A DNA stretch of 64,000 nucleotides from Thermodesulfobacteriota bacterium (GTDB lineage: Bacteria > Desulfobacterota_D > UBA1144 > Nemesobacterales > Nemesobacteraceae): assembly GCA_965197885.1 (NCBI GenBank), contig OZ240231.1, positions 192,504-256,503 of the forward strand. Reading direction: 5' to 3'. The notes beneath the pieces were generated by a model. It did not search any database. It was not told the origin of the DNA and worked only from the letters and a program-made list of their open reading frames with translations. A program made the translations under genes and the position numbers. This document shows, one piece after another, positions 11,287-64,000 of this stretch (the stretch's first letter is position 1; each line of letters opens with the position of its first letter).

Positions 11287-11941
11287 TTTAGAGCCTCCTT
11301 TAAAAACACAACCGATGGCTAGCACTGCCTAGTCACTCCTAGTTTATTCTACTTCCCCACCTTGACCGCTGTCAAGTGGAGAAAGTGTAGGAACCATAAA
11401 TTCAGGCTTCTTGGTCTTGCAGACTGTGGAAGTACCGAGCGTAAAGCAGCAAAAATGTGGATAACGTCTTAAGTTTTTCGCAAATTTAAAAGGGAAGGAA
11501 GACGGCATTCCTTTATAAATCCGGCTAGATAAACAGTGCTCCCCAATTTATTTAACGGGAGGAAACACCGCCATCAGCAATTATACGACGAAGAGCCCCA
11601 AAAAGGTAATTCAGATAAACGAGAAGGAGCCTAGGCTTCACTTAAGCTCCCTTGTGACGGATGCTGAACAATCCTATGGAGGAAATTATCCATGAGATCA
11701 GGAGGCGGCCCCGGGTGGTTGAAGCTTTCCCCGATGGACAGAAAGGAGATAATTGAGGTAAGACAGCAAGATCAGATCAGATTTTTCAGGTTCGGAGACT
11801 CATGAGTCTTTGAACCTGAAACTGAAGAAACGCCAAAAACCCAGATTTGCGAAAAATTCCGAGCGCTGGCCTTTGCTGAGAACAGTTTCAGTGATGTCAT
11901 TTCTCAGTTCTTAGGAGAACCGAAGCGATTTCCCTGAACAT

Positions 11942-12397
11942 TCAGATACGGAGAAATCCAACGGATTTCATGCTTTCTTTGCTTCCGCGGTCAATTCTCT
12001 CGACCACCTCGCCGCTCTTTATGTCAAAAACGAAACAGGATATTCCGGAAAGTATCTCTAGGTTAAACTCCAGGAAATTGTTTACGTACATCTTGGAGTC
12101 TTCAATCGTTTCCTTGGGATCGGCTTTATCCGGGTTTCTTACGAGAATGAAATACGCGCACAGAAAATCCGGAAGGTCAGCGTTATGGGCGAATACAGCT
12201 TTTGAATCGTATTTCAGGATTACATTCTGGTTGAAATAGCGCTGGTATCCGGCGATTAGCGGCTGGTTCAGATGAGAGAGGGCGTAAACGATCGCGCAGG
12301 CGATTTTGTCCTGGTTCTCAATCATGAAATCAAGCGATTCCTTGTTGAACCCCTCGAGTGTTATTTCCGGTTTTTCCTTGTTTCGTGGTTCTCGCAT
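11942..12397 (-). CDS. hypothetical protein (151 aa)
   Basis: Intact ORF downstream of rny on the same strand; no recognisable motif. Confidence 0.5.
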   Translation of the reverse strand: MREPRNKEKPEITLEGFNKESLDFMIENQDKIACAIVYALSHLNQPLIAGYQRYFNQNVILKYDSKAVFAHNADLPDFLCAYFILVRNPDKADPKETIEDSKMYVNNFLEFNLEILSGISCFVFDIKSGEVVERIDRGSKESMKSVGFLRI

Positions 12398-12485
12398 TTC
12401 TTCCTCCTTCAGCAGTTCCCGCTTCCCGGTCTGTTTTTAAGTGCCGGTGTAATATACCACAAAGATCCCGCGTTTGGCGTGTTTT

Positions 12486-14041
12486 CTATGAAGCGTACGC
12501 CGTCGCCCTGCTTTCCCTTATGACCATGATTTTTATCTGTCCCGGATAAACGACCTCTTCTTCTATCTTCTTGGCTATTTCATGCGAGAGAATTGCTCCC
12601 TCCTCATCGCTTACCTGATCGCTTTCCACTATCACCCTTACCTCTCTTCCGGCCTGAATCGCATAGCATCTTTCAACGCCCGGAAAAGAACTCGCGACGC
12701 CTTCTATGCTCTCGATTCTTTTTACGTAGTTTTCATACGTTTCCCTCCTCGCTCCGGGGCGGGCAGCGGAAATAGCGTCGGCTGCCTGAACGAGAAGCGG
12801 CAGAACTCCCTGGGGCTGCGGGTCATGGGTTTTTTCAAGCGCGTCGATGATCTCAGGGGGCTCGCCGTATTTTTTGACGATATTAGTCCCTATGTCCACG
12901 TGGGAACCTTCAACTTCGTGATCAATCGCTTTTCCTATATCGTGGAGCAGGCCGGCCCTTTTCGCGAGCTTTTCGTCGTAGCCGATTTCAGAGGCAAGCA
13001 TTCCGCAGATAAATCCCACTTCAATCGAGTGGTTGAGTATGTTCTGCGAGTAGCTTGTTCTGTATTTAAGCATCCCGAGCTTGCTTATCAGGTCCGGATG
13101 CATGCCGCTTATGCCGAGGTCAAAAAGCGCTTTTTCCCCTTCTTTCTGTATTTCCTTTTCTACTTCCTTTTCAACCTCGGTTACCACTTCCTCAATCCTT
13201 GCGGGATGAATTCTCCCGTCAGCTATCAGCCGCTCAAGCGAAATTTTCGCCACTTCCCGCCTTATGGGATTAAAGCACGAAATCACGACCGTCTCGGGCG
13301 TGTCGTCGATAATGATGTCCACCCCGGTGCGAAGCTCTATGGAGCGGATGTTCCGTCCTTCTCGCCCGATAATCCTTCCTTTTACGTCGTCGCTTGGAAG
13401 ATTGACTACCGACACCGTTTTCTCGCTTGTGTATCTGCCGGAATATCTCTGAATGGCAAGAGATATGATATCCTTTGCCTTCCGCTCGGCGGCGGAATTG
13501 CACTCTTCCTCTATATACTTGAGTTTTTAGCCGCTTCGTGTCTCGCCTCATTTTCTACCAGGCTTACGAGTTCCGCTTTTGCCGCTTCGCGGGTAAGGCC
13601 TGATATCTCCTCTATTTTTCCCTTTATATCTTCAATGTTCTCATCAAGAGTCCTCTGCTTTTTTTCGGCGGCCAGATTCTTGCTTTCGAGTTCCGCCTGC
13701 ATTTCTTCAAGCGCCGCCTCTTTTTTATCAATCTCCTCGTATTTCATGCTGAGGCCATCTTCCCTAGCTTTGAGTTTCTTCTCGGTGGCAGAGAATTCCC
13801 TGCGTTTCTCACTCGACGTTCTCTGCATCTGGGAATTTTTGTCCTTGACGAGTTTCTTCGCCCTGTTCTCCGCCCTGTTTCTTACCTCTTCTGCTTTCTT
13901 CTCGGCCTCTTCGATTATAATCCGGGCCTGGTCCCGGCTTTTACGGACCCTGTTTTTTTCCATAACCATCCTGTAGATGAAATGGGCGGCGAATCCAAGC
14001 CCGAAGAGCAGTAAAAACCATAATGTTGATTGTACTTGCAT
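12486..14041 (-). pseudogene. rny: ribonuclease Y, reading frame broken by a 1-nt shift in an A5 (coding-strand) homopolymer at 13524-13528; may be a sequencing artefact
   Basis: ORF 13511-14041 encodes the TM plus coiled-coil N-terminus ending ...EARHEAAKNSSI*. ORF 12486-13415 encodes the KH and HD domains (VVNLPSDDVKGRIIGREGRNIR...LLHDIGKA). Inserting one A in the gctaaaaactc run gives the continuous read AAKKLKYIEEECNSAAERKAKDIISLAIQRYSGRYTSEKTVSVVNLPSDD, which matches the RNase Y linker. Confidence 0.7.
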
Positions 14042-15491: not shown

Positions 15492-18400
15492 CTACCATCT
15501 GAGGTCGCCCCGGAGCGCCACCGCGTGACTGGAGGGGAGGTCGGGGTTCTCGGTGCGGTCACCCTCAAGGCTGAGGTTAAAGGAGTCGCCGAGCCTAAGG
15601 CGCCATCCCGCCCTGTATCTCCTGTCCCCAGACATGGAGAACCCTCCGTAAGGAGTGATGACTCCTGAGCCCCCAAACGCCCCCATCGCGTAACCCGCCT
15701 CGGCGTCCAGTCGTCCCGGGGCCTGATCGCCTCCTGCAAGCCCCCGCGTATCCCCCATTGCCCAAAGACCCTCAACCCCGCTTGCAGTGGTTCCAACGGA
15801 TGAACCGAGCTTTGCCGAGAATCCCCTCTCCGCTCCCCCTGGAGCGAACTGCAGGGAACCCCCGGCTCCCCATTCTGAGTAGCCGCTTCGCTCATGAGCC
15901 ATGAGCCTTCGCGCTGTAATCTCCACCGTGAGTCCTCTTGAGGGGTTTATGTAGCGCATCGCGCCTCCCATTTCAAAACCCATGCCCCTCTCCGCGTCCC
16001 CTCCGTCTCGTCTCACTCCAAGCTCAACAGACGGGATGAGGGAACTTCCCGAAGCAAATGCAAAGGGTCGGGAACCCTCAAGTACAAGGCGAAGCCTGCT
16101 TACGTCGGCTTCTGTCTCCGTCATCCGGGAGGTTCCCTCTGAAGAGGTTCTCACTAAAAGCGCGTCTGTGCGGGCTGAGATATCAAATCCCCCGGCTGCA
16201 ACCAGGGCGCCCCGGGCCCCGAGGGCCGCCATCTTCATTTCAATATCGGTTTTCTCTCCTCCTCCTTCGTAGGTAAGGGTGAGTTCACCCTTACCGTAGC
16301 CGAGAAGGGTCCAGGCGCTTAAGCGATCGTTTAAGGAGAAGCGAAGGTATGGGTGAGCGCTTGTTATGGAGCTTTTAAGGTCTCCTTTTATATCACCTGA
16401 GTTGTAAGAGCCGTCTCCCGTGCTTCTCGCAAGGGCAAGGCCCAAAAGCACACGGTCCCACGCGCGGTCAACTCCCAGGGTTGCCGTGGTTACGTCTCCG
16501 TCAATTGAGAGGTCGGAATCTCGTCCCGAGAAACTCGTCCGTGCCGCTCCTCCCCACGCCGTCCATCCGGGCCCGGGGTTTTGGGTTGCGTTCTGGGCTA
16601 GGGAAACTTCAAAGGAAGAGCTGAGCAGGAACTCCCGCATCCTGAGGCTATTGAAGTTCTCGGGGCGGCGGTCCTCGGGAACCAGTTCATCCCATGGGGA
16701 TATTTCCGTTATCTCCGTGGCGGGAGGCTCTTTCAGTTCCGCGCCTCCAAGGGTTACTCCGCGTGAGGGCTCTTGGGCGGAGGACATCCTCCCTCTTACG
16801 GCTTCCACAGCGTGGTTTGCCACTGTGCGCCCGAAGCGGGCAAGCCACGCCTTGACGCTCCGCGCCTCCTGGTGGTCGGTCGTCGTGACCATGAACGCCT
16901 GCGTCGCCGTCAGCCCGCCGGGGTCCTGTGCCGTCACCGTCACCGTCGCCGTACCCGGACGCGTCGCGGTCAGCGTCAGCGTCGCGCCGGTGAGGTGCAA
17001 CGCCACTGCCTGATCCGACACGACGGCCGTGTAGTCGAGCGCGTCGCCGTCCCGGTCTGCGAAGAACGGGATCAGATCGAGCGCCACCGGCTCGTCTCCG
17101 ATATCCAGGGTCCGATCGGGGATGACGCCCGCTGCAAGCGGCGGGTCGTTCACCGGCCGCACCGTCACGTCCACCGCCGCCCGGGCCGTCAGTCCCGATC
17201 CGTCGCCCACGACGTAGGTGAAGCTGTCGGTGCCGTGAAAGTCAGGCTCCGGCGTGTACACCACCGCTCCTGTGTCGGTCACCGCCGTGCCGTGCGTCGG
17301 CGCCGATACCTCCACCAGCGCCAGCGCGTCCCCGTCGGGGTCGCTGTCGTTGCTGAGCACGTCGATGGTAACCGGCGTGTCCTCGGGCGTGTCCGCCGCG
17401 TCGTCACCCGCCAGCGGCGGGTCGTCCACCGGCAGCACCGTCACGTCCACCGCCGCCCGGGCCGTCAGTCCCGATCCGTCGCCCACGACGTAGGTGAAGC
17501 GGTCGGTGCCGTGAAAGTCAGGCTCCGGCGTGTACACCACCGCGCCTGTGTCCGACACCACCGCCGTGCCGTGGGTCGGCGCCGATACCTCCACCACCAC
17601 CAGCGTGTTCCTGTCGGGGTCGCTGTCGTTGCCGAGCACGTCGATGGTCACCGGCGTGTCTTCGGGCGTGTCCGCCGCGTCGTCGACCGCCCGCGGCGGG
17701 TTGTTCACCGGCGGCGGCGGGGTCGTCCTGATGCGCCCCGACGGCGACCAGGGACCGGTGCCATCACTATTGGTGGCGCGCACCTGCACCTGGTAGGCGG
17801 TGGGGGCGGCGGTCAGGCCCGCGATCGTGGCGCTGGTGCCGCCCACGCCTTGGGGGCCGGGGGTAAAGTCCCCGCTTGTGCCTTCCCGGTACTGCAGGTC
17901 GTAGCTAGAGATGTCCGGCCGGCCGGTGTTCGAGGGCGCGCTCCAGCTCACCGTCAGGCTGTCGGGCGTGCCGGGGGTCGCCGTGACTCTGGGCGTCGCG
18001 GGCGCCAGCGGCCGCTCGTTGACGTCGTTAGTGAGATCAATCGTCACCGTGACCGTGTCGGTGCCGCCGTTGCCGTCGTCGGCCTTCACGATCACCGTGT
18101 AGCTCGGCGTGGTCTCGTAGTCGTAGGTGACGCCGGGCCTCGTGCGGATCTGGCCGCTGGTCGAGACGATCGAGAACGACGACGCGTCCATGCCGCCCTC
18201 CAGGGTGTAGGTCAGCTGGTCGTTGTTGCCGTCGGTGGCGGTGACGGGGGCGCCGACATCGGTGTTGGCGGGGCTGTTCTCGGCGACGCTACGCGTGGCG
18301 GTCGAGGAGGAGAACGTCGGCGCGGAGTTGCCGGCGGTGTTGGTCTGCCCCGATCCAGACGGCGACCAGGGGCTGTTGCCATCACTATTGGTGGCCCGCA

Positions 18401-20891
18401 CTTGCACCTGGTAGAGGGTGTTCGCGGTTAGGCCCGTGATCGTCGCGCTGGTGCCGGTCTCGTTCTGGGGGCCGTCGATGAAGGTCCCGCTGGTGCCTTC
18501 CCGGTACTGCAGGTCGTAGGTGTCGATGGCGGGACCGGTGTTCGTCGGCGCCGTCCAGGTCACCGACAGGCTGGTGGTGCTGCCGGCGACCGAGGACACC
18601 GAGGGGGCCGCCGGCTGGCCCGGCGGGGTGGGGACGTAGGCGTTGGTCACGGTGGTCGCGGCGCGGGCGAGGTTGCCGTTGCCAGCGGCGTCGTCGACGG
18701 CGTCGGCGGCGAGCGCCACGGTGAGGTTCGTGGCCGAAGCGGTCAGGGCCGTCGTCAGGGTGATTTCGACCTTGGTTCCAACCACGCTCGCCGCGCTCGT
18801 CGCCGCGGTGACGCTGTTGGCCTGGATGGTGATGTCGCTATGACTGACCGCTCCGATGTCCTCGCTGAACACCAGCAACACCGATGCGCCGTTGGCTGAC
18901 GTCGTCGGCGCATCGGTGCCGGTGGTGACGAGCGTCGGGCGGATGCCGTCGACCTTGTGCCCGGCGTCAATGGCGACCGCGGTGTGGTCGAGGGCGGCGC
19001 TGATGGTCGTGCTGCCGGTGGCCGTGATGGTGCCGCTGGTTAGCGTGTTCGCCGCGATCCCGACGCCGTTCGGCGCCGTGTCGCCCACGCCCACCGTGTA
19101 GCTGCACGCCATCGTGGTCGTGTTCATGCCGGTCGCGCAGGTGGCCCCTTTCGCTGTGCCGTCAAAGTCCAGCTCCAGCTCCGGGGTGCCGGTGATGTCG
19201 ACCGCCGCGTCGAAGGTCACCGTCGCCGTGACGGTGTCGCTGATCGCGTAGGTGTTGTCAGTGCCGGGGGTGGAGGTCAGCGCGACCGACGAGACCTCCG
19301 GGCCGTCGGCCGTCAGCGCCAGGCAGACCGCGTAGCCATCGGCCCAGGTGGGGACGTTGCTGTACCAGGAATAGGCGTTCTGGGCGGAGCCGTACAAAGC
19401 ATCCGCCAACTGGTACGTCTGAGTCCCGACGTGAAACACGAGATCGTCCGCGGCGGTCCCGAGTTGCTCAGTGTCTCCGAGGTTGATCTGAAGTTGGACC
19501 GAGTCGACGAATAATGAATCGATTGTGTAGTCGGTGCCACCGAAACTGATCGTTGTGTCATCGAGACTCCCCCCGAAGCTGCTGTAACCGACCGCCAACG
19601 CATTCAGCCTTCCCACGGTCAGGTTTCCCGTCCAGACCTGGTTCGTCATCGAGGCGGCGCTGCACGCGACGGGCACGGCGACGCGAAGCACCCTGACGAT
19701 GTAGGTCTCCGTGGTCGTTGTGTCGGGCGCGGTCACCTTCACCTTGACGGTGTTGGTGCCGACATCGAGGTTGACCTGGAGGCCGGCGGTCATTGTGTCG
19801 GCGTCCGTCAGCGTGGCGTCCGAATCGTCGAGATACTCGACCGTCGCCGTCGTCTCGCTTGTCATCACGGTGATCGTGCTCTGGGTCACCGCATTCGCGA
19901 CCACAGCAAGGTACTCCTCTGGTGTGGTCGTGGCCGTGCCGAACGCCGGGCTAAGCGTCGCGCCGCTCACCGACAGGGCGCTCAGCGTCGCGTCGGTGGC
20001 GTCGCCGACCGTGTTCGCATAGCCAGAGACGATGATGCGAAGCGCCTCGTTGGCCCCGGACTTAAGCATCCAGGTACTGCCGCTCTGCCAGTAGAACTTG
20101 TTTTTGATGCTCCAGTCCGCGAGGCCGAGCGACGTATCTTCTCCGCTGGAGGTGGTGGTGTTGAGCTCCACGCTCGCGGTGCCGCGCTGCGTGACGACCA
20201 CCACGTAGTTGGTGTTCGCCGAGAGGGCGAGGCCGGTGTGCGTGAACGTCGCGATGACCCCGGTCGTGAAGGTCGCCGGCGCCGTCAGGGCCGTGCAGTC
20301 GCCGGCGGTGGTGGATGGAAACTCGTTCGTGGTGCCATCCTCCTCGCAGACCTCGACGTCGAAGGGGTCGTTCTGGGCGTCCTCGGAGTTGACGCGCACG
20401 CTGGTGAGCGTGTAGCCGTTCGTGTTGGCACCCGTGTGGAACAGCTGCGCATGTTTGTTGCCACTGGTGCTGGCGTTGTCATCGGGCCCTTGCGCGGAGT
20501 TGCTCACGAGAATGCGCACCGTCTGCGCCTCCGCCGCGGCCGCCCCGAGGAGCACCAGGCCCAAGACGAGGACGGCGGTGCGGCCTGGACGGGCGTGCCG
20601 CAGGGCGGCACAGCCAAGAAGGAGCACGGCAAGGGCACGCAGTCCGCGCGCGAGGGACGAAAGCGGTTGGGTGGCTTGGGGTCGGGCGGCCGGGCTTCTT
20701 TTGCCCGAAGACCGCGCCCCGGCGGGGACGACGGAAGGCAGCTTGGCCGGGGAGGCCGAATTCAGGCGATAATCTCGGCTCCGTGTATTACAAAAATGGG
20801 GGGGGGGTAGCGCAAAGGATAGTTCTGGAATCCTCCGCGGAATCCATGGCTCTTCCCGGAATATCGCAGCCGGATGATACGGTGAAATCAA
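15492..20891 (-). CDS. giant autotransporter (type Va) adhesin, 1799 aa, with Ig-like, cadherin-like, FN3 and approximately 93-aa tandem repeat passenger domains
   Basis: C-terminal roughly 450 aa has the alternating hydrophobic pattern of an autotransporter beta-barrel and ends in ...LRGDLRW. FN3 domains (LSVTWTAPTNTGPAIDTYDLQYREG...YQVQVRATNSDG). Cadherin-like domain (ATDGNNDQLTYTLEGG...IDLTNDVNERP). Repeats of the TYTPEPDFHGTDSFTYVVGDGSG type. GC content is markedly higher than the flanks (GCC/GGC/GTC-rich codons). The annotated start is a TTG; see the phase-variation finding. Confidence 0.85.
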   Translation of the reverse strand: MISPYHPAAIFREEPWIPRRIPELSFALPPPHFCNTRSRDYRLNSASPAKLPSVVPAGARSSGKRSPAARPQATQPLSSLARGLRALAVLLLGCAALRHARPGRTAVLVLGLVLLGAAAAEAQTVRILVSNSAQGPDDNASTSGNKHAQLFHTGANTNGYTLTSVRVNSEDAQNDPFDVEVCEEDGTTNEFPSTTAGDCTALTAPATFTTGVIATFTHTGLALSANTNYVVVVTQRGTASVELNTTTSSGEDTSLGLADWSIKNKFYWQSGSTWMLKSGANEALRIIVSGYANTVGDATDATLSALSVSGATLSPAFGTATTTPEEYLAVVANAVTQSTITVMTSETTATVEYLDDSDATLTDADTMTAGLQVNLDVGTNTVKVKVTAPDTTTTETYIVRVLRVAVPVACSAASMTNQVWTGNLTVGRLNALAVGYSSFGGSLDDTTISFGGTDYTIDSLFVDSVQLQINLGDTEQLGTAADDLVFHVGTQTYQLADALYGSAQNAYSWYSNVPTWADGYAVCLALTADGPEVSSVALTSTPGTDNTYAISDTVTATVTFDAAVDITGTPELELDFDGTAKGATCATGMNTTTMACSYTVGVGDTAPNGVGIAANTLTSGTITATGSTTISAALDHTAVAIDAGHKVDGIRPTLVTTGTDAPTTSANGASVLLVFSEDIGAVSHSDITIQANSVTAATSAASVVGTKVEITLTTALTASATNLTVALAADAVDDAAGNGNLARAATTVTNAYVPTPPGQPAAPSVSSVAGSTTSLSVTWTAPTNTGPAIDTYDLQYREGTSGTFIDGPQNETGTSATITGLTANTLYQVQVRATNSDGNSPWSPSGSGQTNTAGNSAPTFSSSTATRSVAENSPANTDVGAPVTATDGNNDQLTYTLEGGMDASSFSIVSTSGQIRTRPGVTYDYETTPSYTVIVKADDGNGGTDTVTVTIDLTNDVNERPLAPATPRVTATPGTPDSLTVSWSAPSNTGRPDISSYDLQYREGTSGDFTPGPQGVGGTSATIAGLTAAPTAYQVQVRATNSDGTGPWSPSGRIRTTPPPPVNNPPRAVDDAADTPEDTPVTIDVLGNDSDPDRNTLVVVEVSAPTHGTAVVSDTGAVVYTPEPDFHGTDRFTYVVGDGSGLTARAAVDVTVLPVDDPPLAGDDAADTPEDTPVTIDVLSNDSDPDGDALALVEVSAPTHGTAVTDTGAVVYTPEPDFHGTDSFTYVVGDGSGLTARAAVDVTVRPVNDPPLAAGVIPDRTLDIGDEPVALDLIPFFADRDGDALDYTAVVSDQAVALHLTGATLTLTATRPGTATVTVTAQDPGGLTATQAFMVTTTDHQEARSVKAWLARFGRTVANHAVEAVRGRMSSAQEPSRGVTLGGAELKEPPATEITEISPWDELVPEDRRPENFNSLRMREFLLSSSFEVSLAQNATQNPGPGWTAWGGAARTSFSGRDSDLSIDGDVTTATLGVDRAWDRVLLGLALARSTGDGSYNSGDIKGDLKSSITSAHPYLRFSLNDRLSAWTLLGYGKGELTLTYEGGGEKTDIEMKMAALGARGALVAAGGFDISARTDALLVRTSSEGTSRMTETEADVSRLRLVLEGSRPFAFASGSSLIPSVELGVRRDGGDAERGMGFEMGGAMRYINPSRGLTVEITARRLMAHERSGYSEWGAGGSLQFAPGGAERGFSAKLGSSVGTTASGVEGLWAMGDTRGLAGGDQAPGRLDAEAGYAMGAFGGSGVITPYGGFSMSGDRRYRAGWRLRLGDSFNLSLEGDRTENPDLPSSHAVALRGDLRW
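17151..17709. repeat. intragenic tandem duplication (approximately 279-bp period) inside the autotransporter gene
   Basis: caccggc[ca]gcaccgtcacgtccaccgccgcccgggccgtcagtcccgatccgtcgcccacgacgtaggtgaagc... occurs at about 17151 and again at about 17431 with more than 95% identity. Confidence 0.85.
20798..20807. repeat. G10 homopolymer (C10 on the coding strand) in the 5' region of the autotransporter gene; candidate slipped-strand phase-variation tract
   Basis: Ten consecutive G at 20798-20807. It encodes PPP/PPH in two overlapping frames (see finding). Confidence 0.9.
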
Positions 20892-51756: not shown

Positions 51757-52911
51757 ATGATGGATATGGATTTTGAACAGGTAAAACTGGGGATTCTCGG
51801 AGGCGGGCAGCTGGGGAAAATGCTTTGTCTCGTTGCAAGCAACTGGAACCTCAGCACCTATGTGCTTGACCCTTCCTCAGATTGTCCGGCGGCATCTGTG
51901 TGCACCGGGTTTTCCCATGGTAATTTCAGGAATTACGAGGATGTTTACGCGTTTGGCAAAAACGTTGACATTCTGACCATAGAGATTGAGCATGTGAACC
52001 TGCAGGCGCTTTTCCGCCTGCAGGAAGAAGGAGTCGTTATAAGGCCCGAGCCCCACGCGCTTGAACTTATACAGGACAAGGCCAGGCAGAAGAGGTTCTA
52101 CACTTCAAAGGGGCTCCCCACTGCGGACTTTTCGGTTTTTCCGGGAAAAGAGGCGATAGTTGCAGCCATCGAGTCCGGGGAAATAAGAATTCCTTTCGTT
52201 CAGAAACTTTCAAAGACGGGTTATGACGGAAGGGGAGTGTACGTCGTAAGGGGAAAAGAGCAGCTCAGCGATCTTTTGGAGGGGGAATCCGTCGTCGAGG
52301 ATCTTGTTGACGTGGAAAAGGAGATTTCCGTTATAGTGTCACATAATTCCGCCGGAGAAACGAAATGCTTTCCTCCGGTTGAGATGGTGTTTAACAGCCA
52401 CGCCAACATAGTTGAATTCCTGATAAGTCCCTGTGAGCTTGACGATGCGCTATCTGTTCGTGCGTGCGAGCTTGCCGAGCGTACGATAAAATCTTTTGAC
52501 ATGTGTGGAATCCTTGCGGTTGAGATGTTTCTTTCCAAAAAAGGCGACATTCTCATAAACGAATCCGCTCCGAGACCGCATAACAGTGGACATCACACGA
52601 TTGACGCCGCACGAACCTCGCAGTACGAACAGTGTCTGAGATCGATTCTGGATCTTTCTCCAGGCGATACTGAAATAAAAACTCCTTCCGTTATGATTAA
52701 CATTCTCGGGCAGCCGGGTTTCGAGGGTCAGGTAAGATACGAAGGGCTTCGCGGATGCATGGGGGTTGAGGGAGCCAAGTTTCACATATACGGTAAAACC
52801 CAGACTAAGCCATACAGGAAGATGGGACATGTAACTGTGCTTGACGACGATATTGCAAGCGCGCTTGAAAAGGCAAAGTTCATAATGAATAATCTGAGGG
52901 CGATAGCATGA
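51757..52911 (+). CDS. purK: N5-carboxyaminoimidazole ribonucleotide synthase
   Basis: [18 protein letters not shown]-terminus; ATP-grasp core; C-terminal ...[25 protein letters not shown] typical of PurK. Confidence 0.9.
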
Positions 52912-53450
52912 AACCTGTTCTAGTAAGCGTTATCATGGGTTCTGACTCGGACCTTGCGGTCATGGGGGAAGCGGTCGAGGTTCTGGAACGATTCGGCATA
53001 GGGCATGAAGTTACTATAGTCTCTGCGCACAGAACTCCGGAGCGTCTTGTCGATTTTTCGAAAAAAGCTCACAAAAGAGGAATCAAAGTCATAATAGCCG
53101 GAGCGGGAGGCGCCGCGCATCTTCCGGGAATGGTAGCTTCCGTTTCTCCTCTCCCGGTCATAGGGGTTCCAATAAAATCCTCAAATTCGATTGACGGATG
53201 GGATTCCGTACTTTCCATCCTGCAGATGCCCTCAGGTGTTCCGGTTGCTACAGTCGCTTTAGGCGGGGCTAAAAACGCCGGCATCCTCGCCGTTGAGATT
53301 CTTTCGGTTGCCGACCCCGAGCTTTCACGCGCGGTGGCTGAGTACAAGAAGAAGCTTTCTTCTGAGGTAAAGAAAAAGGCCGTGCGGCTCGAAAAGCTGG
53401 GCGCCTCGGTCTATCTTGAGCGAATGAAGGCAGAGGAAGAGACTTCCTGA
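52908..53450 (+). CDS. purE: N5-carboxyaminoimidazole ribonucleotide mutase
   Basis: [17 protein letters not shown]...[17 protein letters not shown]... is canonical PurE; overlaps the purK stop. Confidence 0.92.
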
Positions 53451-59854: not shown

Positions 59855-60043
59855 ATGGGACTTGTAGATGAGATAAGAAACAGAAGAGATTCATGGAGCC
59901 GGAGGCTTGAGGAGCAGAGGGCTTCCCAGGAGCCGTACGACTATGAATTCGAGAAGCGAAATTCCCGCAGAATCGAAGAAGAAATAAAAAAGAACCGGGA
60001 GATGGTCGGAAAATTCCCATCCGCGGAAAAACTATCAGAATAA
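59855..60043 (+). CDS. small basic hypothetical protein (62 aa)
   Basis: ORF with an upstream gaaagagga SD-like sequence; no motif recognised. Confidence 0.35.
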   Translation: MGLVDEIRNRRDSWSRRLEEQRASQEPYDYEFEKRNSRRIEEEIKKNREMVGKFPSAEKLSE

Positions 60044-60133
60044 TCGGCGAGAAGGAGGGGTTTAAAGGTGATTTGACAACGCTTTTTATATCCTTTAGGA
60101 TTTTCTTCCCCGTGAGGATGGAGGTTTAATTTT

Positions 60134-60394: not shown

Positions 60395-62188
60395 ATGAAG
60401 AATCCTTCTTTCACATCAGCGATAGCGGATATAAAGGCAAGGCTCAGTATAGCAGATGTCATACAGGGCTTTGTTTCCCTTAAAAAATCTGGAAAAAACC
60501 ATATCGGGCTTTGCCCGTTCCACGACGACAACAACCCTTCCATGCACGTAAATGATGAGAAGGGCTTTTTCCATTGCTTCAGTTGCGGAGCCGGAGGGGA
60601 TGTCTTCGGCTTCCTGATGAGGTACAGCAATATAGGTTTCCACGAGGCCTTAAAAGAACTTGCGCGGAAAGCCGGAGTCAGGCTTCCCGCCCCGCGTCCG
60701 CGCACGGAAAGCGCAAAGAAAAAAGAGATCGCCGCGGCGAGATTTTTTGAGATAAATTCCCTCGTCTGTTCGTTTTACAGCAAGAACCTTCTCCATTCTG
60801 GAAGGGACTCCGCGCAGGCCAGAGAGTATCTTAAATCGAGGGGGATCACTTCGGAGATAAACGAGGAATTCAAACTCGGCTTCGCTCCCGACAGCTGGGA
60901 CGCCGTCGTAAAATTTGCTTCCGGAGATAATATCAGTATCAAGGAGCTTGAAAAGCTTGGACTTGTCGTTGCGAGGGAGAGAGGAAGCGGGCACTATGAC
61001 CGGTTTCGAAACAGGATCGTTTTTCCCATAACCGATATAACGGGGCGAATTTGCGGTTTCGGCGGCAGAACCCTGACGGAAGACGAACCGAAACAGCCGA
61101 AATACATGAATTCCCCCGAATCCCCGGTTTTTGACAAAAAAAACGTTCTTTACGGACTTTACCACTCGAAAAATGAAATTGGAAGAAAACGTAAAGCCGT
61201 TCTGGTTGAGGGCTACATGGATTTCATAAAGCTCTACGCAAATGGAACGCGCAACGTGGTTGCCACATTGGGAACGGCCTTTACGAATGAGCACGCCAGG
61301 CTTCTTCGACGTTTCTGCGAAGAGGTAGTGATTGCCTACGACGGCGATGCAGCGGGGATACGTTCTGCCGTCCGGGCCGGAGAAATTCTTCTTGAACAGG
61401 GGATTTCTTCAAGTATCTGCCGCATTCCCGACGGACTTGATCCCGATGATTACCTGGAAGCGTATGGTCCGGAAAGTCTCGGCGAACTGATTGCGGACGC
61501 CGTTGATGTCTCCGATTTCATTATTGACGACACTTTCGCAAGATACAGGGAAAAGAAAATGTCTTCCGGAGAGTCGATGAGATTTCTCGCGGACATGGTT
61601 TCGAAAATAAAAGACCCGGTTCGAAGGGCCGAAGCTGTTTCCAAGGCAACCGGGATTTTCGGGATAAGGGAATCTGAGTTTCTTTCTATGATAAAAACTT
61701 CGGATTCTGGTAAAAACCGCGGATCACTTGCGCCGGTCTCCTTGATCCCGAAAAAAAGCGTTCATGAGAGAGAAATTGTAAGGATACTGCTTAAATTCCC
61801 CCACCTGCTTAGCGCTGAGAAAATCGAAAATGTCGGAGAGGATTTTGAAAATAATGATTTAAAGGTTATTCTCAAGCATGTGGGTGAAGGGGAGTTTACC
61901 GAGGTTTCCTCCCTGATGAGTTCTTTTGAAAAAATCGAGATGCAGCAGTTGCTGGGCGAGTTAATTTTTTCTTCGGATGATTTGATAGACGAGACGACTT
62001 CGGAGAAAATACTAAGTGGCTGCGTGAGAGAGCTTGAACTGAGAAACATAGCTTTTAAGCGTAACGAGGTAATGGATAGAATCCGCAAGCAGCGCGGTTC
62101 TTCGGATAAAAGCCTTGAAAGAGAGCTTGTTGAACAATACAGGAATCTGGTGAGAATAGAAAAAACCATAAAAGGAACTGTCAGTTGA
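60395..62188 (+). CDS. dnaG: DNA primase
   Basis: Zinc-ribbon [36 protein letters not shown]; TOPRIM block [12 protein letters not shown]...IAYDGDAAG. Confidence 0.95.
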
Positions 62189-63687
62189 ACCCAAACGACG
62201 AAACTAACGGGTTAGGGGGCGAAATCAGCGGGCAGGACGAAGGGGAATTCTCTGAATCCGTACAGGCACAGGGTTTTCAAAATGCCCCGGCTGATTCTCA
62301 GGCCGAAGACAGTCTCAAGAACGTAAAGAGTCAAGATGCCGACCAAGACCCTATAAGATCGTACATTCTCGCTATTGCACAGCACTCCCTCCTTTCCAAG
62401 GAGGAAGAGGTTGAGATAGCAAGACAGATTGAAAAAGGTAAAAAAATAATTGCGAGAATGATAATTGACAACCCTTTCATGATGAAAAAGGTTCTCAAAC
62501 TCGAAGAAGAGATCAAAGATGGGAGACTTGGCGCGGGTGATGTCTCCTACCAGGGCGAGGACATCGAATCCTCCACTGATGGCGAAGCATATCGCAATTC
62601 TATAAAGAATTTTCTTCCGATCAGACAGCTTTTTGCCGAGAACCAGGAACTGAGAAAGAAGCTCGGTACTCTGACACTTCCAGATGACGATAAAGCGAAG
62701 ATCTCAAGGAAAATCAGGAAAAACAACGAAAGGACTGTAGAACTTCTTGACGAAATTGATTTTTCCTCGGCACAGGCCAACAGGATATACAGTCTGGCCG
62801 TCGAGTATGTGGACAGAGTCGAGAGTGGGGTCTGTGACGACTGTATGATGGATGGTTCAGATGACGCTATTGGCAATGGTTCGGAATCTGAATATTCCGA
62901 GGAGAAACTCGCTTCGCTTAAAAGGGTGCTTGGGAGGTTTGAAAAAGCAAAGAAAGCTACTAAGAAAGCCAGAAAAAAACTTATCGAATGCAACCTTAGA
63001 CTTGTCGTCAGTATAGCGAGAAAATACATTAACAGAGGACTGCCGTTTCTTGACCTGGTTCAGGAAGGCAATATGGGGTTGATGAAAGCGGTTGAAAAGT
63101 TTGAACATGGAATGGGATACAAGTTTTCAACCTGTGCCACATGGTGGATAAAGCAGGCCATTACGCGTGCGATAGCCGATCAGGGAAGTCTTATAAGAGT
63201 TCCTGTTCACATGACCGAGAACATAAACAGGCTAAACAAGATCTCAAGATCCCTCATGCAGAAATTGGGTAGAGAACCCAAACCAGAGGAGATAGCCGAA
63301 GCAATGGATATACCCCTTGAGAAGGTATTGAAAATCATGAAGGTGTCACGCGACCCGATTTCGCTTGAATCTCCGATTGGTGAGGACGATTGCAGGCTGA
63401 TGGATATTATCTCGGACCCGACTTCCTCTTCTCCGCTTGACATGCTCGAAACCAAGGAATTGAACCGGATCATGCGCAACGCACTCTGCACCAATCTCAG
63501 TAACGGAGAGGAAGGAGTTGTCAAAATGCGTTTCGGTATAGATGAAGACAAGGAATATACCCTTGAAGAAATAGGAAAAAAATTAAATGTTACCCGCGAG
63601 AGGATAAGACAGATCGAGGTAAAGGCTATTAAGAAGCTAAAAAGGTTCGGAAGAGCTCTTCCAATAAGGGGTTTTAACTCTGACTGA
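62185..63687 (+). CDS. rpoD: RNA polymerase sigma factor RpoD (sigma-70), probable TTG start overlapping the dnaG stop
   Basis: Region 1.2 [29 protein letters not shown]; region 2 [53 protein letters not shown]; region 4 [19 protein letters not shown]. Confidence 0.93.
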
Positions 63688-63732
63688 TATTCCCGCTTGA
63701 CATTATTTTTTCCGATGATACTTTTCTGCGTC

Positions 63733-63845
63733 TAGGGTGGCTATGCTAAAGGGGAAGCACCCGGTCCCATCCCGAACCCGGAAGTTAAGTCCTTACAGGC
63801 CGATGATACTGCTCCTTTCAGGAGTGGGAAAGTAGGTAGCTGCCC
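63733..63845 (+). rRNA. rrf: 5S ribosomal RNA (not adjacent to a 23S gene within this window)
   Basis: ...ccggtcccatcccgaacccggaagttaagt...gccgatgatactg...gggaaagtaggtagctgcc reproduces the universally conserved 5S loop sequences; 5' GGTGGCTA pairs with 3' TAGCTGCC (two G-U pairs) to form helix I. A T-run follows. Confidence 0.85.
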
Positions 63846-63886
63846 TTTTTTTCTTTCCTTGTTTTCTCTAGTTCCCGGTGCCTGCG

Positions 63887-64000
63887 ATGCCAAAGACCAA
63901 TGTTGCCGTGTTTGTTTCCGGAAGCGGAACCAATCTTCAGGCGGTGATAGATTCTGGTATAGAATCCGCAAACATAGCCGTGGTTGTCTGCGATACCCCA
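63887..64000 (+). CDS. purN: phosphoribosylglycinamide formyltransferase, N-terminal fragment (continues beyond window end)
   Basis: MPKTNVAVFVSGSGTNLQAVIDSGIESANIAVVVCDTP matches the PurN N-terminus (AVLISGxGSNLQAIID). Confidence 0.75.
   Translation, partial: MPKTNVAVFVSGSGTNLQAVIDSGIESANIAVVVCDTP

Follow-up and report, generated by a model that had tools for sequence, protein, structure and literature searches.

Arrangements with a separated 16S or 5S rRNA gene constitute a known class (PMC6582327). In Leptospira interrogans, all three rRNA genes are separate and each has its own promoter (PMC6582327, PMC2686494); in Thermoplasma acidophilum and Nanoarchaeum, the 16S, 23S, and 5S genes are likewise all unlinked and separately transcribed (PMC7761764, PMC2686494). 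Mycoplasma hominis carries two 16S-23S operons together with two unlinked 5S genes (PMC4342427). The commoner type of split is that of Helicobacter, Rickettsia, Thermus, Borrelia, and the planctomycetes, in which the 16S gene stands apart while 23S and 5S stay together (10.1101/705046, PMC6582327). In rrnDB, 23.6% of the bacterial genome entries show unequal rRNA gene numbers, arising mainly from additional 5S genes (PMC2686494). Large surveys devoted to rRNA unlinking scored 16S-23S linkage only and mention neither the 5S gene nor Dadabacteria (PMC7761764, 10.1101/705046), and our literature searches returned no paper on rRNA gene organization in Dadabacteria. The detached-5S organization of this class, detailed below, appears to be unreported so far. 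An earlier note on this DNA, made from the sequence alone, had remarked that unlinked 5S genes are known but unusual. The precedents of Leptospira, Thermoplasma, and the mycoplasmas agree with that remark; detached 5S genes are already known in other lineages, and Dadabacteria are an additional case of an unusual arrangement.

Close to the 3' end of the window, i.e., the whole 64-kb stretch of DNA analyzed here, a 5S rRNA gene lies between rpoD and purN, and this rpoD-5S-purN arrangement is fixed in the class Candidatus Dadabacteria. The explanation that best accounts for the whole, and that we consider a good bet, is one of an unlinked, lineage-fixed 5S unit that would be transcribed autonomously and would probably constitute the only 5S gene. 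The rrf gene of L. interrogans is similar in lying apart from rrs and rrl behind a promoter of its own; Leptospira, however, belongs to the Spirochaetota and has another gene neighborhood, with the dnaG-rpoD-5S-purN synteny being specific to Dadabacteria. Thermoplasma and Nanoarchaeum differ in being archaea, with archaeal promoters and processing. Mycoplasmas share with Dadabacteria a 5S gene detached from the 16S-23S unit in small genomes, but they are host-restricted Mollicutes for which a conserved link to rpoD or purN is not reported. As for the split operons of Helicobacter-type lineages, disruption of rrn is clade conserved there as well; those lineages keep 5S with 23S, whereas in Dadabacteria the 5S is the detached gene.

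The 116-nt 5S gene occupies positions 63733..63848 of the + strand. It scores 86.9 bits with RF00001 over this interval, the gathering score being 38 (E = 3.4e-17; cmscan of the 64-kb window), in an untruncated alignment spanning model positions 1-120 of 120, and it obtains 141.9 bits from our own covariance model (CM R1), built from 14 distinct 5S sequences of the clade. At gathering thresholds, 5S is the sole Rfam family in the 64-kb window, and no tRNA gene was detected there by ARAGORN. Among relatives, RF00001 scores range from 77.6 to 88.6 bits. Given the Rfam E-value and conservation of the gene in 35 other assemblies, a chance match is excluded. The canonical 5S rRNA described in the earlier note is thus borne out at full model length and with intact loop motifs; that note had also named an Infernal score below threshold as grounds for abandoning the call, and the region scored well over the gathering threshold.

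Several structural features support this assignment. Loop C (CCCAUCCCGAACCCGGAAGUUAAG) and loop E (GAUGAUA/GAAAGUAGG) align with high posterior probability to the model consensus and are unvarying in the core clade; the helix IV/loop D portion of the window 5S is 4 nt below consensus length. Pair counts on the Rfam structure show that the three-way junction of helices I-V is kept among relatives, with 96.2% of cells being standard pairs over 34 pairs, versus only 23-58% for slid partners. Helix I contains the two G-U pairs that had been reported earlier, now placed at U6-G110 and G7-U109. It also displays two compensatory pairs; because relatives vary little, covariation offers thin evidence. 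The thermodynamic fold of the 5S region is uninformative (MFE z-score 0.28), and evidence for structure thus comes from the covariance model and the pair counts. At the level of primary sequence, 5S identity amounts to 96.6-100% where RpoD identity is only 66-99%, and the most distant members still possess 5S genes that are 88.7% (L032) and 84.4% (L035) identical. That the 5S is so much more conserved than RpoD of the same genomes points to strong purifying selection. Judged by its sequence, the window 5S is a working gene rather than a decaying copy.

This gene is isolated from the other rRNA genes. Rfam detected no 16S or 23S gene anywhere in the 64-kb window, nor in the 10 kb downstream in L001, a relative that is 98-99% identical to the window; for the species of the window, the nearest 23S gene is hence >63 kb upstream and >10 kb downstream. 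Rfam scans at gathering thresholds of the window plus 14 loci, covering ~10 kb on each side of rpoD, returned 5S only. Nine universal 16S/23S signature motifs (allowing ≤2 mismatches), searched for across 52 sources totaling 1.03 Mb, formed no cluster and yielded two isolated chance matches. The earlier note had pointed to a 5S gene lacking a neighboring 23S; with no 16S or 23S in the window or in the 14 loci, this is a property of the lineage and not of a single contig.

To describe the distribution of the locus, an RpoD protein search at one genome per species returned 47 loci. The close loci derive from metagenome-assembled genomes (MAGs) labelled Candidatus Dadabacteria or Thermodesulfobacteriota, many at chromosome level and 1.5-2.4 Mb in size; in the NCBI taxonomy, Dadabacteria is a class of Thermodesulfobacteriota. 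BLASTN with the 116-nt 5S gave a match just 3' of rpoD in 33 of the 47 loci. When our own covariance model was applied to the window together with 49 loci (0.99 Mb), 36 sources were each found to contain exactly one 5S per locus stretch, a count that refers to rpoD-centered loci; the same model found no 5S in the outgroup loci L034 (RpoD 45% identical) and L036-L047. A module consisting of promoter, 5S, T-run, and purN is present, as a single copy each, in 35 further independent assemblies, over a range of RpoD identity from 99% down to 50%, with the T-run lacking in L035. Clade-wide, 5S-purN is the conserved unit, this linkage being tighter and more widespread than that of rpoD with 5S.

Two of these loci bear on public records. 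In L018 (JAAXHI010000133.1), labelled Candidatus Poribacteria and with an RpoD 89% identical to that of the window, 126 N at ~1563-1698 exactly fill the rpoD-purN gap in which relatives have the 5S gene; this looks like a Dadabacteria contig in a Poribacteria-labelled bin, with its 5S masked. L008 (CAYSDX010000089.1), labelled Spirochaetia, contains the full rpoD-5S-purN module and an RpoD also 89% identical to that of the window, an indication that this MAG is taxonomically mislabelled in the public record.

With respect to gene number, we consider it probable that the locus represents the sole 5S gene of the genome; i.e., that this lineage has a split rrn operon, such that the gene between rpoD and purN would be the working and probably only source of 5S rRNA. 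The chief competing explanation, which we regard as unlikely though still deserving of weight, is that a canonical 16S-23S-5S or 23S-5S cluster exists elsewhere, with the copy between rpoD and purN being a second, dispersed 5S gene. An extra copy of this type sits uneasily with the presence of the locus in all sampled members of a class-level clade, without a single loss, and with its near-consensus promoter. Small genomes usually carry few rRNA copies, and the genomes concerned are of 1.5-2.4 Mb. In a context-blind search, a 54-base clade-specific 5S pattern was run over a metagenome collection and retrieved 2 contigs, both with the dnaG-rpoD-5S-purN layout (n = 2), i.e., every match was rpoD linked. 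As a weaker indication, the 5S is internal to long short-read contigs without a repeat-induced break, as in the 136-kb SPAdes contig of L013. Conversely, selection would act on a second copy as well, and such a copy could retain a promoter; where rRNA gene numbers are unequal in bacteria, additional 5S genes most often account for it (PMC2686494). A sole 5S gene nonetheless remains the reading that we favor.

Upstream of the 5S gene, alignment of relatives reveals a -35 hexamer, TTGACA, at 63697..63702 (+), 9 nt after the rpoD stop, followed after a 16-nt spacer by an extended -10 element at 63716..63724 (+), composed of TG (63716-63717), A, and TACTTT (63719-63724). The -35 is TTGACA in 35/36 sequences (TTGACT in L032) and lies at exactly -36..-31 from 5S nt 1 in 29 of the 31 unique upstream sequences. 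The spacer measures 16 nt throughout, save for 17 nt in L016. All 36 sequences contain a -10 of the form TAnnnT with T1, A2, and T6 invariant (e.g., TACTTT in the window and TATAAT in L032), 24/36 have TG one base 5' of it, and in at least 32/36 the end of the -10 is 8 nt from 5S nt 1. Upstream of 5S, invariance is confined to columns of the two hexamers, with columns of the spacer and discriminator drifting. As the hexamers and their geometry are conserved while intervening columns vary, this pattern constitutes the phylogenetic footprint of a sigma-70 promoter, and the 5S gene is predicted to have its own conserved, near-consensus sigma-70 promoter. The earlier note had located the TTGACA correctly but had seen "only a weak -10"; that description does not hold for an extended element with three positions invariant in all relatives.

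The placement of this promoter would allow transcription to begin close to the mature RNA. A canonical start, 7-9 nt past the -10, would correspond to 63731-63733, with A63734 being the first purine encountered; there is no purine at the canonical +7/+8, leaving the exact start site uncertain within ~4 nt. We infer a transcript start within ~2 nt of the mature 5S 5' end. The primary transcript would thus approximate mature 5S rRNA and need little processing.

The P1 promoters of Escherichia coli rrn operons have near-consensus -35 and -10 elements, a 16-bp spacer, and an 8-nt discriminator, and their transcripts start 9 nt beyond the -10. The Dadabacteria 5S promoter shares the 16-nt spacer and the 8 nt following the -10. 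It differs in that its discriminator is neither GC rich nor conserved, in that its UP-element region overlaps the end of the rpoD coding sequence, and in that it would drive a 116-nt RNA and not a 5-kb operon. Transcription of eukaryotic 5S genes by Pol III, and of some stand-alone 5S genes in Crenarchaeota, begins approximately where the mature RNA begins and terminates in a T-run. The likeness of these systems to the Dadabacteria locus, i.e., a start near the mature end, a stop in a T-run, and little processing, is an analogy only; Pol III is another polymerase and uses an internal control region as opposed to an upstream sigma-70 promoter, and the control elements are not homologous.

On its 5' side, the 5S gene follows dnaG (DNA primase; 60395..62188, +; TIGR01391, 433 bits) and rpoD (primary sigma-70 factor of 500 aa; 62185..63687, +; NF004208 and TIGR02393), which overlap by 4 nt at the rpoD start; the window RpoD is 99% identical to that of L001. 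A candidate dnaG-rpoD promoter, TTGACA-N17-TAGGAT, was found by pattern match at 60073..60101 (+), 294 nt 5' of the dnaG ATG, as one of 4 window matches to the promoter pattern versus 0.9 expected. It lies in the interval downstream of a 62-aa ORF (59855-60043), which lacks a Pfam match and so is not recognizably S21; the rpsU that precedes dnaG-rpoD in the macromolecular-synthesis operon (rpsU-dnaG-rpoD) was accordingly not recognizable here. The genes upstream of dnaG are of a housekeeping nature and include those for a ctpA-like protease, uppS, dxr, and rseP.

The intimacy of rpoD and 5S raises the matter of read-through. The 5S starts 45 nt past the rpoD stop (TGA, 63685-63687), the distance given in the earlier note, and in the window as well as in ~30 relatives only 9 nt, with no terminator, separate that stop from the -35. 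Read-through from rpoD is therefore possible, and rpoD transcripts probably enter the 5S and its T-run in the window genome, to go by this spacing. In L029 and L030, rpoD and the module are separated by an inserted gene for a 530-aa RTX-like calcium-binding repeat protein. In L029 the insert (11549-13141) is preceded by a canonical 11-bp hairpin-plus-T terminator after rpoD (11380-11405); in L030 a terminator with a 12-bp stem and T8 (13495-13522) follows the insert, 280 nt 5' of the 5S promoter. Promoter matches in these loci are 11/12 and 10/12, respectively, each with TG, and 5S, T-run, and purN are intact. Read-through from rpoD is thus not required. Given the conserved promoter geometry and a module that persists intact behind these terminators, the 5S gene is predicted to be an autonomous transcription unit. 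The suggestion in the earlier note that 5S could be co-expressed with rpoD by read-through consequently survives as a possibility for this genome, but not as the defining mechanism. Moreover, as a dedicated terminator appears only where rpoD and 5S are separated, the 5S together with its T-run probably also serves to terminate rpoD transcripts where 5S directly follows rpoD.

The same evidence weighs on a more radical proposal, namely that 5S is not independently transcribed at all and represents the 3' end of the dnaG-rpoD mRNA freed by RNase processing, with TTGACA being incidental. The 9-nt, terminator-free interval in the window and ~30 relatives is what such a proposal would lead one to expect. 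It does not explain why both hexamers, their spacing, and their distance to 5S are conserved as neighboring bases vary, why L029 and L030 keep the promoter behind terminators, or why L035 maintains TTGACA-16-TAGAAT despite a 414-nt gap after rpoD; we thus deem it very improbable compared to transcription from the promoter of the 5S gene itself.

Within the 3' end of rpoD, a perfect 14-nt palindrome, GGAAGAGCTCTTCC, at 63649-63662 (+) encodes GRALP, and synonymous changes in relatives retain its symmetry (GGAAGGGCCCTTCC in L007). A terminator-like hairpin at 63647-63664 was considered as an rpoD terminator; it is on the minus strand and within the rpoD coding sequence, and was hence treated as a coding palindrome.

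Least credible of all, to the point of being practically negligible, is an assembly or binning artefact in which a collapsed rrn operon or chimeric join put 5S beside rpoD: rRNA regions are classic misassembly sites in MAGs, but identical junctions are present in 36 independent assemblies from differing projects and technologies, long-read chromosomes included, with flanks colinear on both sides, and the layout recurs in two ENA long-read contigs, one at 64x coverage and the other, from a second strain, at 7x. These two ENA contigs encode an identical RpoD protein in a matching rpoD-5S-purN layout and are 99.5-99.8% identical to the window in DNA sequence over the overlap. The earlier note had raised misassembly of the contig at this point as a reason for doubt; recurrence of the module in 35 other assemblies disposes of it.

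At the 3' end, a T7 run at 63846..63852 (+), the first T's of which are the last 3 nt of 5S, corresponds to the terminal U-run of the earlier note and is predicted to act as a leaky terminator or 3'-end signal. In 35/36 sequences (all but L035), the 3' strand of helix I gives way directly to 4-9 consecutive T residues and then to CTTTCC.... T-runs of ≥7 are common on the + strand of the window (18, vs ~2.8 expected), and the T-run counts as evidence only by virtue of its cross-species conservation. Folding places an 8-11-bp helix I immediately 5' of the U-run; this helix closes a structured domain of ~98 nt, unlike the compact hairpin of a textbook intrinsic terminator. Ordinary hairpin-plus-T terminators are used elsewhere in the lineage (L029, L030), making helix I plus the U-run a plausible stop signal. 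The transcript would thus end at, or be attenuated by, the U-run directly after the 3' strand of helix I. Since there is no compact hairpin, and since purN begins 38 nt further on without a promoter, the sequence suggests that any termination at the T-run is partial.

The gene downstream is purN (phosphoribosylglycinamide formyltransferase), of which the 5' part (63887..64000, +) is included before the window end cuts it; TIGR00639 is matched by the N-terminal 38 aa, and the full-length purN product of L001 scores 234.9 bits against the same model. Its ATG at 63887 is 38 nt past the 5S end, and the intervening 63853..63886 (+) is a conserved, pyrimidine-rich spacer, CTTTCCTTG...AGTTCCCGGTGCCTGCG, which in the alignment has no sigma-70-like promoter and which includes a Shine-Dalgarno-like GGTG 6 nt 5' of the purN ATG. 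A promoter scan detected no + strand sigma-70-like promoter at 63000-64000. A separate purN promoter in or after the 5S was considered and set aside, with no scan match and, by eye, hexamers of only 3-4/6 matches with A2 missing. As this 38-nt interval is devoid of a recognizable promoter, purN is probably expressed by read-through past the T-run. In L001, purN is the last + strand gene before the convergent genes for DAHP synthase, trmB, and aroB.

Taken a step further, the locus can be pictured as a sole and processing-free 5S gene, transcribed from its mature 5' end onward, in which helix I and the U-run would form a leaky terminator that also ends the dnaG-rpoD mRNA and meters read-through into purN. 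We put this forward as a speculative composite that is more apt to fail than to hold. Were metered read-through true, a purine-biosynthesis gene would be driven by an rRNA promoter and thereby coupled to ribosome synthesis; were the gene both sole and processing free, 5S stoichiometry with 23S would be reached without co-transcription.

Our analysis adds a whole class of uncultured, mostly marine and sponge- or coral-associated bacteria to the short list of those in which 5S is detached. For the clade, the rpoD-5S-purN junction provides a stable synteny marker, and it shows annotators and those scoring MAG quality where the 5S gene is to be expected, a practical point given that in at least one public MAG the 5S has been replaced by N. 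The locus also offers a natural case in which to consider (i) 5S:23S stoichiometry without co-transcription, (ii) a bacterial 5S made with almost no end-processing, and (iii) a structured RNA gene as a terminator or attenuator of its protein-coding neighbors. Current understanding is not overturned; the same phenomenon is known in other lineages, and the chief mechanistic points are ones that we infer.

Elsewhere in the window, a 1799-aa ORF at 15492-20891 (-) contains Big_9, cadherin-like, fn3, and PKD domains and resembles an adhesin-like giant surface protein. Its G+C content of 0.61-0.72, vs ~0.50 for the genome, suggests either foreign origin or a strong repeat-driven compositional bias. 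The window further encodes purK (51757-52911) and purE (52908-53450). In place of these, positions 1-1198 of the two ENA contigs (L050 and L051) carry a Type ISP restriction-modification gene (N6_Mtase/Eco57I/Type_ISP_C) and a SEFIR/TIR_2 gene, with homology between the window and these contigs breaking at ~53384; the region at ~51757-53450 is a strain-variable defense-island junction.
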